Source of the DNA: Escherichia phage mEp460_ev081
DNA: 45,865 bases
Direction: 5' to 3' (one strand)
Sequence record: LR597641
The notes under the pieces were generated by a model that saw only the letters and a list, made by a program, of their open reading frames with translations, was not told the DNA's origin and made no database searches. A program made the position numbers and the translations under genes. Positions 22,836-41,507 of the stretch are shown here, piece after piece. Positions within the stretch are counted from its first letter, which is position 1. The number at the start of each line of letters is the position of its first letter.

Positions 22836-23426
22836 TTATATGTCAGGTGTCTGAAGTTTTGCTTTGGCTCTTAAAATGGTTTGCCGCGAGGTTTTGAATT
22901 CCCGGGCAATGGCACTTATACTTACACCTGACTTAATTCGTTCGAATACCACCTGTTTCTGTTCTTCATTTAACACAGGTGGTCGACCAAAACGTTTCCC
23001 TGCGCCGCGGGCTCTTACTATCCCGGAATGAGTGCGTTCAAGTAAAAGGTCTCGTTCAAATTCAGCGACTGCTGAAATTACTTGCATCATCATTTTTCCT
23101 GTTGGACTGGTCAGGTCAATGCCACCCAATGCTAAGCAATGCACTCTGATACCTGTTTCGGTCAGTTGTTCCACTGTTTTCCTGATATCCATTGCATTAC
23201 AACCAAGGCGATCCAGTTTTGTCACAATCAATTGATCACCACATTTCAGGCGAGCAAGCAACCGGTTAAAACCTGGACGCTCACTGGTTGCTGCTGAGCC
23301 GCTAATGTGTTCTTCGATTATTTGCTGAGGTTTGATTTTAAAACCTGCACTTTCGATTTCCCGGCGTTGATTTTCGGTGGTCTGATCCAGCGTTGATATC
23401 CGACAGTAAGCAAAAATTCGAGACAT
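22836..23426 (-). CDS. Serine recombinase / DNA invertase (Pin/Gin/Hin family)
   Basis: 196 aa with N-terminal catalytic motif (YCRISTLDQ with presumptive catalytic Ser), resolvase/invertase core and C-terminal HTH; located directly downstream of tfa as pin genes are in e14/Rac/Qin. Confidence 0.85.
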
Positions 23427-30781: not shown

Positions 30782-31189
30782 TTATTGATGCTTGTTGCGT
30801 TTGCGAGCCTCTAATAGCTCGGTGAACAGGCGATTAAAATTCTCAACGCGGGCGCGGAGTTCGCTGAGTTGTGCTTGTTGCTCTGATTTAGGAAGTGCGC
30901 GATACAAACGCAGCATCTCTAACTCATCTTCCGATAAGTCTAAGGCACTATCGAGTGAAACAGGGGGAGCTGGTGTTTTGTCCTCGTCGCCAAACAGTAT
31001 CCAGGTTGGTGAACATTGCAATACCTCGGCGAGGCGATGCAAATTTTGCCCGCGCGGGGCTGTATGGTCACTTTCCCATAATGAAATTGATGAGCCAGAT
31101 ACGCCAGCAGCTTTGCTTAAACCGTTTTGACTTAAGCCTACCTGCTTACGTCTTTCTCTAATGCGTTGACCTAAAGTTTTCTCGTTCAT
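30782..31189 (-). CDS. Immunity repressor, DicA-like (XRE-family HTH)
   Basis: 136 aa; HTH segment (LGQRIRERRKQVGLSQNGLSKAAGVSGSSISLWE) and C-terminal similarity to E. coli DicA (VLQCSPTWILFGDEDK...NFN.LF.ELL.ARKR); divergent from a Cro/DicC-like gene; no S24 peptidase domain. Confidence 0.85.
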   Translation of the reverse strand: MNEKTLGQRIRERRKQVGLSQNGLSKAAGVSGSSISLWESDHTAPRGQNLHRLAEVLQCSPTWILFGDEDKTPAPPVSLDSALDLSEDELEMLRLYRALPKSEQQAQLSELRARVENFNRLFTELLEARKRNKHQ

Positions 31190-31236
31190 ATTTAGATATC
31201 TTAATAACCCTTGACTTGAGATTCCTTGAGTGATTA

Positions 31237-31255
31237 GCATTGAGAAAACTCAATA
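31237..31255. promoter_or_regulatory. Operator-like palindrome in the repressor/cro divergent promoter region
   Basis: TTGAGAAAACTCAA perfect palindrome between the divergent DicA-like and DicC-like genes. Confidence 0.5.
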
Positions 31256-31266
31256 TTGGAGGTGCG

Positions 31267-31494
31267 ATGTTTAAATCAGACGTAATTAATTTTTACGGTA
31301 CGAAAGCCAAAGTAGCGAAAGCTGCTGGCGTTGACCCATCTGCTGTTTCTCAATGGCAAGAGCTGGTTCCTGAAGGTCGCGCGATGCGTCTACAGGAGGC
31401 ATCTGGCGGCGAGCTTCTGTATGATCCCAAGGTTTATGACGAATATCGTAAGACGAAGCGGGCGGGGCGGTTGAACAATGAAAATCACTCCTGA
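31267..31494 (+). CDS. Cro/DicC-like regulator
   Basis: 75-aa ORF divergent from the repressor; my alignment to DicC/YdaS-family proteins is from memory and unverified. Confidence 0.65.
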   Translation: MFKSDVINFYGTKAKVAKAAGVDPSAVSQWQELVPEGRAMRLQEASGGELLYDPKVYDEYRKTKRAGRLNNENHS

Positions 31495-31999
31495 ACAGGC
31501 TCGTGAGGCTCTGGATGCCTGGATATGTCGACCAGGAATGACACAGGAGCAGGCGACGATATTAATCACTGAAGCATTCTGGGCTTTGAAAGAGCGCCCG
31601 AACATCGATGTTCAGCGTGTCACAGATGAAGGTGGCGCGGTTGATCAGCGAGCGCTTGGCGTTAATCGAGTGAAGATATTCGAACGCTGGAAGGCTATCG
31701 ACACTAGGGATAAGCGTGAAAAGTTCACGGCGCTAGTGCCTGCAATTATGGAGGCTATCCGGATTAATGATTTCAGGTTGTATCGTGAAATTAGTGACGG
31801 AAAAAGCATCACGTACATGATCGCCGGGTTAAACAAAGAATATGGCGATGTGGTGGAGTCCGGACTGCTTTTTGCTGATCCTGCCGTAGTGGATCGTGAA
31901 ACTGACGAACTTATAGAAAAAGCAATTGCTTTCAAACTTGCGTATCGACAGCAATACCAACAAAAAGCTGGATGGAATTATGAGCCTTCTTTTTGCTGA
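31478..31999 (+). CDS. Hypothetical early protein (possibly YdaT/CII-like regulatory)
   Basis: 173-aa ORF between the cro-like and replication genes; functional call is by position only. Confidence 0.4.
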   Translation: MKITPEQAREALDAWICRPGMTQEQATILITEAFWALKERPNIDVQRVTDEGGAVDQRALGVNRVKIFERWKAIDTRDKREKFTALVPAIMEAIRINDFRLYREISDGKSITYMIAGLNKEYGDVVESGLLFADPAVVDRETDELIEKAIAFKLAYRQQYQQKAGWNYEPSFC

Positions 32000-32945
32000 A
32001 CGCCCACTGGTTATAAACACACAGCTTGCGATGAAGATTGGCTTAAATGAAGCCATTGTGTTGCAGCAGTTGCATTACTGGTTGAGAGATACCAATTCCG
32101 GCATGGAATGTGATGGTGTTCGCTGGATTTACAACACAACGGAACAATGGCTGGAACAGTTCCCATTCTGGTCAGAGTCAACGTTAAAGCGCGCGTTTGC
32201 AAGTCTGAAAACGCTGGGGCTTTTGCGTTGTGAAAAGCTCAATAAATCAAAGCGCGATATGACCAATTTCTACACGATCAACTACGGGAGCGAGCTTTTA
32301 GATGGTGGCAAATTGAGCGAATCCATCGGTTTAAAATGCGCCGCTCCATCAGGTCAAAATGACACGATGGAAGAGGTCAAAATGAAACGCTCCATTGGTT
32401 CAAAACGACCCAATGTCATCGGGTCAAAATGGCCTGATGATCTTACAGAGAATACAACAGAGATTACTACAGAGAATAAAAACACTTTTCGTCCGGAAGC
32501 TTCGCAACCGGACCCGCAGACCGCTGAACAGGATTTTTTAACCCGGAACCCCGACGCGGTTGTGTTTAGTGCGAAAAAACGCCAGTGGGGTAGCAGGGAG
32601 GATTTGGCGTGTGCGCAGTGGATTTGGGGGCGGATCGTGAACCTTTACGAACAGGCTGCCAGCGACGATGGAGAGATCATGCGACCAAAAGAGCCTAACT
32701 GGACAGCCTGGGCCAATGACGTGCGCACAATGCGGATGCTGGATGGCAGAAGCCACAGACAAATTTGCGAAATGTTTGGTCGGGTACAGCGAGATCAATT
32801 CTGGGTAAAAAACATCATGAGCCCGTCAAAACTCCGCGAAAAATGGGACGAACTGGTCATCCGCCTGGGACGTTCACCTGTACAGCGTTGTATGAATCAT
32901 ATTTCTGAACCGGATACAGAAATTCCGCCTGGTTTCAGAGGATAA
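31980..32945 (+). CDS. Replication initiation protein (lambda O-like, contains origin iterons)
   Basis: 321-aa ORF with N-terminal replisome-organizer-like region; the coding sequence contains about five direct iterons followed by an AT-rich stretch, as in ori-lambda inside gene O. Confidence 0.75.
   Translation: MSLLFAERPLVINTQLAMKIGLNEAIVLQQLHYWLRDTNSGMECDGVRWIYNTTEQWLEQFPFWSESTLKRAFASLKTLGLLRCEKLNKSKRDMTNFYTINYGSELLDGGKLSESIGLKCAAPSGQNDTMEEVKMKRSIGSKRPNVIGSKWPDDLTENTTEITTENKNTFRPEASQPDPQTAEQDFLTRNPDAVVFSAKKRQWGSREDLACAQWIWGRIVNLYEQAASDDGEIMRPKEPNWTAWANDVRTMRMLDGRSHRQICEMFGRVQRDQFWVKNIMSPSKLREKWDELVIRLGRSPVQRCMNHISEPDTEIPPGFRG
32321..32490 (+). repeat. Putative replication origin: iteron array plus AT-rich region
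   Basis: Repeated TCCATYGGKTCAAAATG-like units (tccatcggtttaaaatg, tccatcaggtcaaaatg, gaggtcaaaatg, tccattggttcaaaacg, catcgggtcaaaatg) followed by AT-rich acagagaatacaacagagattactacagagaataaaaaca. Confidence 0.6.
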
Positions 32946-32985: not shown

Positions 32986-33387
32986 GTGGCAAAAGTTTTT
33001 ACACAAGAAGAGCGGGAAAAAATTAAAGGGCAGGTGGTGGAACTCGTGCGCCAGAGCGGTCGTGAGACGTTACGGCAACTGGAAGCTAAAACAGGTGCGA
33101 CTAGATATCTGATGAGCGTTCTTGCCAGAGAGCTGGTAGCCAGTGGCGATGTATACAACTCCGGCTACGGGTTATTCCCGTCTGAACAGGCGCGTAAGGA
33201 CTGGCAAAACGCCCGCAAAAAACTATCGAGGGCAAAGGTGAAGAAAACAGCTGTGGTTGATCCGGACCTTATCTGGTCGTTACCTGATGGAGAAATACGT
33301 CGCTACGACAGTCGCCTAAACATAATCTGTCGCGAGTGCCGGATGAGTGAAGTTATGCAGCGCATACTGGCATTTTATCAGGGATAA
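32986..33387 (+). CDS. Hypothetical protein
   Basis: 133-aa ORF (GTG start) after the replication gene; no recognisable motifs. Confidence 0.45.
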   Translation: MAKVFTQEEREKIKGQVVELVRQSGRETLRQLEAKTGATRYLMSVLARELVASGDVYNSGYGLFPSEQARKDWQNARKKLSRAKVKKTAVVDPDLIWSLPDGEIRRYDSRLNIICRECRMSEVMQRILAFYQG

Positions 33388-33821: not shown

Positions 33822-35171
33822 TTATTCCGTTTTACATATCATAGTAGTCGATTGGAGAATATAGTTTCTGGGAATGTACTCTTCAAAGTGTTCGTCCTTT
33901 TTAAATACATGAACTACATTTGGGAATAATTGATAGTCAACAGGGTGTATAGCGTTTGGATTATGGTACATGTACATGGCTGTACACCATGGTTCTTGAT
34001 AGTTAGGGTCACTTACATCGGCTGAAAATGGATGTGGGGCTGCATCCTGATCAGTTTTAACACCACTGACGTACACTTTGAATCCACTCGCCTCTACACC
34101 TGCAAGAATTCCCATCCGGTTAAACTTAGGTATGGTTGCTTGAGTAGTGAGTAAAACGGCAGAAACATAATTATTTTGTTCTGAGCCAAAAAAGTTCGAC
34201 TTGATACTTCTATTTTCATCTGTATGTCTTTCAATAGAAATGCCTGACTCAATATCAATCCCGTACAAATAGCTATGCAAGGCTTCGCTTGAGAAGGCCA
34301 TGGACATTCTTTTTGAATAATCCTGCATTGCTATGACAAATGGTTTGTTCTTTGTATGGTTGAGTTCCCAGTAATGAACTTTCTCTGGCTCAGGGCAATG
34401 CCGGACTTTTTTTAATAAACTTCTTGCAAACTTAAAAGGCATGACATTTAGAACATGTTTTCTTAATTCATCCATCTGTTCATCGTTAATGACTTTTCTT
34501 TCAAGAGGGGCTTCTGCTTCAGCAATGCTTACAGCCTCTACAGCAATTTCCACTCCAAATTTAGATAGCAGAAAATCTGGTTGATTGTATTCTCTATTCA
34601 TTTCAAAGTCGAGTTCATAAAATACAGCGTTCAAATATAATTCAAATAACCTTGAATTAAATGCATCACTTTGAAAATCCCTTATAAATATTCCATCAGG
34701 ATCTTTGAACCAGTATGCAAGTTCCTCAAGAACAATATATGCAGGGAAATGAAGAGGGTCTTCGAGGAGCATTTTTATATAAACATTCCTTTTTTTCTCT
34801 GGGACTTTACTCAAGAATAATGAAAAAGGTTTGGATGATTCATCGCCTTGCATGAATGTACCATTTTGGTGCTGCGCCAGCATCTTTGGTATGTCATCGT
34901 TCAAATTATTAAGCAAGACATCCATTGAATCAAATGAAGCCAAGACGTTTATTGCTCTGAATTTTTTATCTAAATCCCGACCTAAGACTATTGCGTTAAA
35001 ATCTTTATCAATATTGCATATGATTATTGTGGATAACAATGTTATCCCATTCCCCTCATATTTAAACCAGCGTATCTCCTCAGAAAATGTCTTAAGGTAA
35101 GGTGAGCGACCGTAAAAATAAATATCAAATTGTTCTTTGCTGATCTCACTGAAGTGTAATCCTGCGTTCAT
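33822..35171 (-). CDS. Hypothetical protein, AT-rich orphan gene (candidate accessory/defence cargo)
   Basis: 449-aa uninterrupted ORF on the strand opposite its neighbours, in a markedly AT-rich segment; no P-loop, HEXXH, RT or other motif I can recognise. Confidence 0.7.
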   Translation of the reverse strand: MNAGLHFSEISKEQFDIYFYGRSPYLKTFSEEIRWFKYEGNGITLLSTIIICNIDKDFNAIVLGRDLDKKFRAINVLASFDSMDVLLNNLNDDIPKMLAQHQNGTFMQGDESSKPFSLFLSKVPEKKRNVYIKMLLEDPLHFPAYIVLEELAYWFKDPDGIFIRDFQSDAFNSRLFELYLNAVFYELDFEMNREYNQPDFLLSKFGVEIAVEAVSIAEAEAPLERKVINDEQMDELRKHVLNVMPFKFARSLLKKVRHCPEPEKVHYWELNHTKNKPFVIAMQDYSKRMSMAFSSEALHSYLYGIDIESGISIERHTDENRSIKSNFFGSEQNNYVSAVLLTTQATIPKFNRMGILAGVEASGFKVYVSGVKTDQDAAPHPFSADVSDPNYQEPWCTAMYMYHNPNAIHPVDYQLFPNVVHVFKKDEHFEEYIPRNYILQSTTMICKTE

Positions 35172-40532: not shown

Positions 40533-40961
40533 ATGGGTTTTCGTAGCGCATCAATTCTTACGTTGATTATTAGTGGGATTATTATCGGGTGCACTGATGC
40601 TGTATCGACAAATTATCATGACCGTACATCATATTACTCCGATAAAGCAATAGAGACACAGTATGTGAGTTCATCTGAACGTACTTCTGATGTTAGTGAG
40701 GATATCCGTCTGTATGCCCATCAAATCAAGAGCGCCATCGAAAAACAGTTCGGGGATGCGAGTAAGTATTCAGGAAAAGAGTGTACACTGAGAATGCATA
40801 TGGCCCCGAATGGCCTTCTACTGGAGGTTAAAAGAGAAAGTGGAGACCTCGATTTATGTCGTGAAGCGATGAATGCGATAAAGAATGCTGATATACCTGC
40901 CCCCCCTTCGCCGGAAGTATATAAAGTATTTCAAAATGGGGTGCTGGATTTTAAACCCTGA
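40533..40961 (+). CDS. Lipoprotein with TolA C-terminal (domain III)-like domain
   Basis: 142 aa; signal peptide with lipobox IIGC; C-terminal approx. 80 aa (YAHQIKSAIEKQFGDASKYSGKECTLRMHMAPNGLLLEVKRESGDLDLCREAMNAIKNADIPAPPSPEVYKVFQNGVLDFKP) closely resemble the C-terminus of E. coli TolA as I recall it. Confidence 0.75.
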   Translation: MGFRSASILTLIISGIIIGCTDAVSTNYHDRTSYYSDKAIETQYVSSSERTSDVSEDIRLYAHQIKSAIEKQFGDASKYSGKECTLRMHMAPNGLLLEVKRESGDLDLCREAMNAIKNADIPAPPSPEVYKVFQNGVLDFKP

Positions 40962-41111: not shown

Positions 41112-41507
41112 GTGGGATTAAAGAAAATCGTTATGTTGACTTTTTGGGTCGGTTTTGTTGCGGGATGCACACCTTTACACCCTTCAGATTGCCACAAAAC
41201 TACTGCTACAGGTAGTTGCAGTTCAGGACGCTGGGATGATCAGGATGAATGGGGGGCGCAAGCGCGGGGAATCAGAGCTGCAATTAATGCCAAACTTGAT
41301 GAGCCGCATAACTGGAAAGGGAAAAAATGCAGGTTGCATATGGAATTCTCTCAGGATGGCACGGCGTTAAAAATATCTACCAGTAACGGTGATAAAGCCT
41401 ATTGCGAAGCGATAAAGTCCGCAGCTCATAAAGCCAAATTTCCGGCCTTCAACAATCCGGAAGTCTACAGAGATTTTCAGAAATCTGGCTTTGACATGCG
41501 AGGTTAG
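41112..41507 (+). CDS. Lipoprotein with TolA C-terminal-like domain (paralog of 40533-40961)
   Basis: 131 aa; lipobox VAGC; C-terminal KGKKCRLHMEFSQDGTALKISTSNGDKAYCEAIKSAAHKAKFPAFNNPEVYRDFQKSGFD shares the same pattern as the upstream paralog and TolA domain III. Confidence 0.75.
   Translation: MGLKKIVMLTFWVGFVAGCTPLHPSDCHKTTATGSCSSGRWDDQDEWGAQARGIRAAINAKLDEPHNWKGKKCRLHMEFSQDGTALKISTSNGDKAYCEAIKSAAHKAKFPAFNNPEVYRDFQKSGFDMRG

Follow-up and report, generated by a model that had tools for sequence, protein, structure and literature searches.

An iteron array and an A-rich block within the O-like gene

The 45.9-kb stretch of DNA analysed here (sequence record LR597641, from Escherichia phage mEp460_ev081; henceforth the window) amounts to an almost complete genome of a lambdoid (Rac/Qin-like) E. 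coli phage. It opens with the terminase genes, closes with Q and the lysis genes and carries the integrase and a RecE-type exonuclease in its central part. Our subject is the gene for a 321 amino acid O-like replication initiator and, lying inside that gene, a set of direct repeats followed by an A-rich block that together form a candidate replication origin. Phages HannyBb (PP925841) and PhiR42_1 (PV340562) have the same open reading frame (ORF) under the name O; they are 96–97% identical to the window over the studied region with gene order unchanged. The principal features are as follows.

31980–32945, + strand: O-like initiator gene, 321 amino acids (PHROG phrog_391, ‘replication initiation O-like’, E 1e-92)
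32001–32294, + strand: region coding for a winged-helix N-domain (amino acids 8–105), presumed to bind the iterons (H-H-b-b-H-H-b-b in an AlphaFold2 (AF2) model, pLDDT 60–83)
32298–32439, + strand: iteron array, six units at 23–24 bp spacing (repeat search, pattern scan, alignment of relatives)
32300–32315 (degenerate), 32324–32338, 32347–32361, 32370–32384 (partial), 32393–32407 and 32417–32431, + strand: iteron cores
32440–32490, + strand: A-rich, easily melted block, a candidate DNA-unwinding element (stability scan; 71% A+T)
32517–32870, + strand: region coding for a lambda-O-type C-domain (amino acids 180–297; BLASTP to lambda O; helical in the AF2 model, pLDDT 60–80)
32904–32942, + strand: region coding for the C-terminal tail SEPDTEIPPGFRG (phmmer and tblastn to DnaT; disordered in the AF2 model)
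32986–33387, + strand: DUF977/LygF (‘Ren-like’) gene, 133 amino acids (Pfam PF06163, E 6e-27; phrog_142)

A first-pass annotation of this DNA had reported five direct repeats inside an O-like gene, and a repeat search agrees, returning a single family of five copies at 32310–32439 with start-to-start distances of 23, 23, 23 and 24 nt. The pattern CATYRGKTYAAAAYG has four exact matches, on the + strand only, at 32324, 32347, 32393 and 32417. When up to two mismatches are allowed it is found nine times in the window against 2.6 ± 1.6 times in shuffled sequences, none of which reaches nine. Copy 3 (GAAGAGGTCAAAATG, 32370–32384) retains the GGTCAAAATG core alone. To these can be added a sixth unit one period upstream (32300–32315), which is degenerate in the window and well kept in phage mEp460 and in Klebsiella relatives. 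Dyad arms of the form CATYRG...CYRATG are present in units 2, 4 and 5 and are not clear in units 1 and 3, and the inverted-repeat pair of the array (I1) is 78% complementary. No DnaA boxes are found in the iteron and A-rich region; the nearest match is at 32997, at the start of the LygF gene, and the total for the window is at chance level.

The array codes for amino acids 107–153 of the initiator, that is, for the linker between its N- and C-domains. As the 23-nt period is not a multiple of three, the iterons are read in three frames and are translated as SIGLK, PSGQN, EVKM, SIGSK and VIGSK, which rules out a reading of the array as a protein-level repeat.

Immediately beyond the last iteron lies the AT-rich stretch that the first-pass annotation had also pointed out. 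The block at 32440–32490 is 71% A+T, and purines make up 59% of its top strand. Whilst it is only moderately AT-rich by raw GC content (0.36–0.38), no 40-mers in the O gene are less stable than those found here (nearest-neighbour dG −44.3; mean for 40-mers across the window −55.1 ± 4.7), which places it in the least stable 2% of the window. The sequence ACAGAGA occurs in it three times, 12 nt apart (32445, 32457 and 32469). Exactly where the last iteron gives way to the A-rich block there is a GATC site (32439–32442), which does not vary among the relatives from E. coli and Klebsiella. In many relatives the initiator gene is closely followed by one for a Dam-type methylase, and control of the origin by methylation of the boundary GATC is possible.

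Comparison with relatives that are ~70–80% identical reveals a marked change in third-codon identity along the gene. In the region coding for the N-domain this stands at 0.51 to mEp460 and 0.49 to Klebsiella phage Kp4882-3, in the iteron array at 0.83 and 0.81, respectively, and in the A-rich block at 1.0 to both. Over positions 32440–32478, identity is 100% with mEp460 and 95% with the Klebsiella phage, and no third codon position differs. Because third-codon identity climbs in this way from ~0.5 to 0.8–1.0 over the origin stretch, the alignments show a constraint that acts on the DNA of the array and A-rich block, beyond what coding would need.

In the Klebsiella phages an N-domain of the same type, with all six repeats and the A-rich block, is joined to another C-domain (Pfam PF09524). 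Conversely, a viral locus (L030) that combines the C-domain and tail of the window’s initiator with an N-domain of the HTH_36 type has a different internal array, made up of six 15-nt units CCCGTCAANNNTTGA (2799–2888). Since the iterons are retained when the C-domain is exchanged and altered when the N-domain is exchanged, they travel with the N-domain rather than the C-domain, as would be expected of an origin and its cognate DNA-binding domain. The L030 locus is also of interest in its own right as a second case of an origin-like array within an initiator gene.

The first-pass annotation likened the region to ori-lambda, and the position of the array and A-rich block in the linker-coding part of the gene, together with the constraint on the DNA, bears out that parallel. 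In both origins the iterons are spaced by about two helical turns and an A-rich block with a purine skew comes next, both lie in the linker-coding part of an initiator gene with a pR-type promoter upstream, the initiators have homologous C-domains and the sequence TCAAAAYG is central to both iteron types. In lambda, four annotated iterons and an A-rich block occupy the same relative position within O. The two differ in that the lambda iterons number four and are ~18–19 bp long, against six of 23–24 bp in the window. They differ too in the initiator, which in the window lacks the N-domain of lambda O (PF04492), is not accompanied by a P gene and ends in a DnaT-like tail in place of the ...TDWIYGVDL of lambda O. 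As an origin, then, this is a new but unexceptional case of the lambda kind. In the mechanism we propose, the winged-helix N-domain would bind the six ~23-bp iterons, and the resulting nucleoprotein complex, probably aided by rightward transcription, would melt the adjacent A-rich block.

Domains of the initiator and its DnaT-like tail

Searches of Pfam and NCBIfam returned no match for either domain of the initiator, even at E ≤ 10, and PF04492 (Phage_rep_O), against which lambda O itself scores 5.7e-36, is not detected. The AF2 model is of low confidence (overall pLDDT 58) and is indicative only. It divides the protein into an N-domain (amino acids 10–105), a disordered linker (109–175), a helical C-domain (180–297) and a disordered tail, with the predicted linker being exactly the part whose coding sequence contains the origin.

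BLASTP aligns the C-domain to residues 135–270 of lambda O with 34% identity over 148 residues (E 3e-28), the alignment starting at the last iteron, whereas BLAST detects no similarity between the two N-domains. The best matches to the N-domain in a fold search, weak ones (E 0.03) obtained with a low-confidence model, are the N-domains of staphylococcal plasmid Rep proteins in complex with DNA (5kbj and 4pql; TM 0.57) and the DnaD N-domain (2v79). There is no assignment to the family of iteron plasmid Rep/DnaD-N winged-helix initiators at the sequence level, but homologues of the N-domain in Staphylococcus phages are annotated as DnaD-like. The C-domain is therefore homologous to that of lambda O and the N-domain is of a different winged-helix type.

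The last residues of the protein have a quite separate affinity. A phmmer search of the PDB aligned amino acids 301–321 of the initiator to the C-terminus of the E. coli replication-restart protein DnaT (primosomal protein I; 2ru8, 6aep and 9zbt_D), no other part of the initiator being aligned, and tblastn with residues 160–179 of K-12 DnaT found the same region of the window at 65% identity (E 2e-5). The last 13 residues of the two proteins are nearly identical (SEPDSQIPPGFRG in DnaT, SEPDTEIPPGFRG in the window), but the initiator has neither the three-helix DNA-binding domain (PF17948/NF002770) nor the N-domain of DnaT. Related tails are found in mEp460 (…DYSQIPAGFRG) and, despite their different C-domain, in the Klebsiella phages (…DYSVPAGFRS). 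The O-like genes of relatives are annotated as ‘primosomal protein I’, a name that they owe to the tail alone. In the host, dnaT is located immediately upstream of dnaC. The string PPGFRG did not occur in the literature searched.

To survey the distribution of the tail, viral contigs were scanned for degenerate DNA sequences encoding I-P-[PA]-G-F-R-G-stop, with one pattern for PP and one for PA, each giving at least 120 loci. For each pattern, 118 of the 120 matches listed represent the C-terminus of an initiator-like ORF. Across at least 239 viral loci the tail caps at least six unrelated initiator body architectures, including those with PF04492 (the lambda-O N-domain), PF13730 (HTH_36) or PF07120 (DUF1376), fusions to PF17948 and several bodies with no Pfam match. 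A DnaC-like gene is present in 65 of the 239 listed loci, starting 0–7 nt after the initiator where its position was checked, and 174 have no loader; a P-like or DnaB-like gene is found in none of the 239.

Two groups of tail-bearing initiators deserve separate mention. In the first (L138 and L183 from IMG/VR), the whole C-terminal DNA-binding domain of DnaT (PF17948), together with the tail, is fused to a DUF1376-type N-domain, and most initiators of this type have no DnaC-like gene downstream. In the second, where the tail reads …VDYSQIPAGFRG, a PerC-like ORF of 162–164 amino acids (PF06069) shares 4 nt (ATGA) with the end of the initiator gene at its stop codon. Examples include mEp460 (L004, 4451–4939), 93 IMG/VR loci such as L370 and the records of SfII and SfIV; none of the listed matches of this class has a DnaC-like or P-like gene. 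That the two are so tightly coupled suggests that the PerC-like ORF has an accessory or regulatory function in loader-less modules.

Absence of a loader gene and recruitment of the replicative helicase

No P-like, DnaC-like or DnaB-like gene was found anywhere in the window by Walker-A screens, PHROG scans or tblastn, the last using host DnaC, Rac YdaV, lambda P and DnaB as queries. The Walker-A screens of the window ORFs, run with [AG]x4GK[ST] and then with GK[STN], returned the terminase and one chance match only, and PHROG scans of the ORFs from O to Q identified DUF968/HNH, RusA and Q. That a loader gene is missing, as the first-pass annotation held for the region downstream of O, is therefore true of the window as a whole. 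The criterion it used, the lack of a Walker-A ORF, would not have revealed a DnaC in any case: the Walker A of DnaC is GKPGTGKN, which a pattern ending in GK[ST] cannot detect and one ending in GK[STN] can. Screens written with GK[ST] will in general miss loaders of the DnaC type.

With an O homologue and no encoded helicase or loader, the window belongs with the O-only replication modules reported in 34 of 314 lambdoid phages (Genome Res 2025, PMC12315714). Phage LLS, which likewise has a lone O homologue, is described there as growing, and the mechanism by which the class replicates is stated as not understood. The loader-less context is thus a known but unexplained variant. What is new here is the DnaT tail on the initiator and the covariation of tail and DnaC; in the accessible part of PMC12315714 we found no mention of a DnaT-like tail, of DnaC-carrying sister loci or of iterons. 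Isolated phages HannyBb and PhiR42_1 have the same arrangement as the window, and in mEp460, SfII and SfIV the tail-bearing initiator is followed by the PerC-like gene rather than a loader.

Comparison with close relatives offers a clue as to what the initiator’s partner might be. Among 80 IMG/VR loci whose C-domain is at least 91% identical to that of the window, all of them tail-bearing, around half have LygF 41 nt past the stop codon, as in the window. In the remaining half, a 246–248 amino acid DnaC paralogue starts 7 nt past the initiator stop, often with a DUF1627 gene and LygF behind it, in that order. The paralogue belongs to the family of K-12 Rac YdaV, a protein with 50% identity to host DnaC. 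Loci with the N-domain of the window show both arrangements (L039, for instance, carries the DnaC paralogue), but unlike sister loci such as L039 the window has no DnaC paralogue within ~7 nt of the initiator stop. When window and sister are aligned, homology runs up to the O stop codon and resumes ~22 nt before LygF, so the two differ by a gene-precise dnaC-like cassette.

The clean absence of this cassette might indicate a defective module, in which the dnaC-like gene has been lost and the genome persists only as a passively replicated prophage. We regard this as highly improbable: the same arrangement is seen in the isolated phages HannyBb and PhiR42_1 and in the 174 listed tail-bearing loci without a loader, the loader-less phage LLS grows (PMC12315714) and purifying selection on the origin DNA is strong.

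A second proposal, raised in the first-pass annotation, is that the adjacent 133 amino acid ORF substitutes for the missing loader, LygF/DUF977 or another small protein being a new kind of loader in place of P or DnaC. LygF has no known function and starts 41 nt downstream of the stop codon of O, in the place held by P in lambda, and no relative of it was found among solved structures. It also follows DnaC-like or P-like loaders in many other phages, however, and is missing from other relatives without a loader, where the next gene encodes Dam (Klebsiella phages) or the PerC-like protein (mEp460, SfII and SfIV); PHROG, moreover, groups it with Ren-like exclusion proteins. Given its co-occurrence with loaders and its absence from loader-less relatives, LygF is not a credible helicase loader, and we consider a new small loader of any kind very unlikely.

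The K-12 Rac prophage illustrates how the tail is associated with DnaC in a different setting. Rac YdaU ends ...PDSAIPPGFRG, the DnaC-like YdaV begins 7 nt further on and LygF/DUF977 lies further downstream in Rac-type phages. The body of YdaU is, however, DUF1376, which corresponds to neither domain of the window’s initiator, and the window has no ydaV equivalent. Four initiators, in two matched pairs, show the ending of the protein changing together with the type of downstream loader (N-domain, ending, downstream gene).

Lambda O: PF04492; TDW-type ending (TDWIYGVDL); P
L110: PF04492; tail; DnaC-like gene
K-12 Rac YdaU: DUF1376; tail; DnaC-like YdaV
Rac-SA53 YdaU: DUF1376; …LDCTDWRDD; P-like gene

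Counts point in the same direction, with the upstream O ending in TDWIYGV[DE]L in 79 of the 79 lambda-P loci listed and the upstream ORF ending in IPPGFRG in 79 of the 79 YdaV-like loci listed, although these samples, like that of the C-domain loci, are made up of close relatives that are not phylogenetically independent. The matched swaps are for this reason the cleaner evidence for covariation of tail and loader.

Taken together, these results lead us to conclude that 32298–32490 is probably the replication origin of the phage, placed inside the gene for its own initiator, and that the host DnaB–DnaC complex is most likely recruited to it, possibly through the tail. The initiator most likely recruits DnaB–DnaC directly, because the phage supplies no helicase or loader of its own and initiators of this set are otherwise paired with a phage DnaC paralogue. 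Host DnaB/DnaC recruitment was one of the options offered in the first-pass annotation, and it gains comparative support from the sister phages (C-domain at least 91% identical, with the tail) that carry the paralogue 7 nt downstream. The disordered tail SEPDTEIPPGFRG, a copy of the host DnaT tail, would be the best candidate for the point of contact with DnaB–DnaC. The sequence data establish the anatomy of the origin, the constraint on its DNA, the lack of a loader gene, the identity of the tail and the way it covaries with loader type; that the N-domain binds the iterons, that the A-rich block melts, that host DnaC is used and that the tail does the docking are inferred from these. As a tentative extension, which we hold to be possible rather than probable, …PDxxIPPGFRG may be the element by which both DnaT and the phage initiators that have captured the tail engage DnaB–DnaC, with loader-less phages mimicking DnaT at their own origins and the phage DnaC paralogue acting as an optional accessory. 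The absence of the tail from Pseudomonas and Staphylococcus phages, in which the gene for the N-domain homologue precedes one for the phage’s own primase-helicase, or genes for a loader and a helicase, fits a function specific to hosts with DnaC and DnaT, without proving it.

Several observations weigh against this interpretation. The dyad symmetry of the iterons is partial and confined to some units, the model of the initiator is of low confidence (pLDDT 58) and the tail and loader counts come from listed matches dominated by close relatives, with only two to three of the swaps being independent. Two further observations, one concerning DnaT itself and the other tail-less phages, also lend themselves to different explanations.

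The structures of the preprimosome reported in 2026 (PMC13377028) have the C-terminal domain of DnaT docked on PriA via a conserved hydrophobic interface and suggest the N-terminal domain of DnaT for recruitment of DnaB/DnaC. Given that the tail is copied from DnaT, it could instead recruit the restart primosome (PriA/PriB) to an origin otherwise as described, DnaB being loaded via PriA–PriB–DnaT–DnaC after the A-rich block has melted, and the presence of the whole PF17948 domain in some tail-bearing initiators (L138 and L183) is in keeping with this. We think it unlikely. The frequent occurrence of a DnaC paralogue no more than 7 nt after the tail, with no P-like loader among the matches listed, would be left unexplained, and PMC13377028 does not assign the PriA contact to the extreme tail.

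It has also been reported that the C-terminal 18 residues of DnaT are needed for trimerisation, the protein being dimeric once they are removed (Szymanski et al. 2013, cited in PMC5314882). By extension, the tail might be a self-association element used by the initiator to oligomerise on the iterons, with the helicase recruited elsewhere, for example by the C-domain acting on DnaB/DnaC in the manner of plasmid Rep proteins. In line with this, initiators of Hafnia phage yong2 (L494, 2501–3532) and Providencia phage PSTCR8lys (L495, 2489–3550) share the N-domain and seem to be loader-less, with no annotated loader downstream in either, yet have no tail, ending instead in …RWLVERTGGAL and …TEQAAQEATA, respectively. 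These two phages rule out the tail as a requirement for loader-less replication. An oligomerisation tag, however, would not be expected to track the type of loader, yet both PF04492 and DUF1376 initiators switch ending together with loader, and we accordingly give this explanation, too, a low probability.

The significance of these results lies in the context of the origin. The tail bears on two questions: how O-only modules, found in about a tenth of lambdoid phages, are replicated and how DnaT hands over to DnaB–DnaC, which is still described as unknown. That tail-bearing initiators have either a DnaC paralogue or no loader beside them, and in none of the matches listed a P-type loader, makes the O-only variant experimentally testable.

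Neighbouring genes

Upstream of the initiator gene lies an immunity and regulatory region, with the following features.

30782–31240, − strand: CI-like repressor gene (Pfam HTH_3; PHROG assignment)
31211–31240, + strand: predicted pR-like promoter (consensus scan alone, 9/12 positions)
31240–31494, + strand: Cro-like gene (Pfam P22_Cro; PHROG assignment)
31478–31999, + strand: cII/YdaT-like gene (Pfam YdaT; PHROG assignment)

The location of the predicted promoter between the divergent CI-like and Cro-like genes agrees with a pR role. Judged by its position, it would drive the cro-like and cII/YdaT-like genes and O, and hence transcription across the origin.

Three other loci in the window can be noted. 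Between LygF and a hok/mok-like gene is a 449 amino acid ORF (33822–35171, − strand) that has no match in Pfam. It is a PD-T7-1 anti-phage defence protein (PADLOC PDLC04073, E 4e-157) and looks like a defence moron of the early-right region. Two ORFs located between Q and the lysis genes (40533–40961 and 41112–41507) are tandem paralogues, both assigned to phrog_5772. Finally, a 196 amino acid ORF (22836–23426, − strand) lies directly downstream of the large ORFs of the tail-fibre region, in a position that matches the annotated DNA invertase of HannyBb. It appears to correspond to that invertase, which suggests the presence of an invertible host-range segment.

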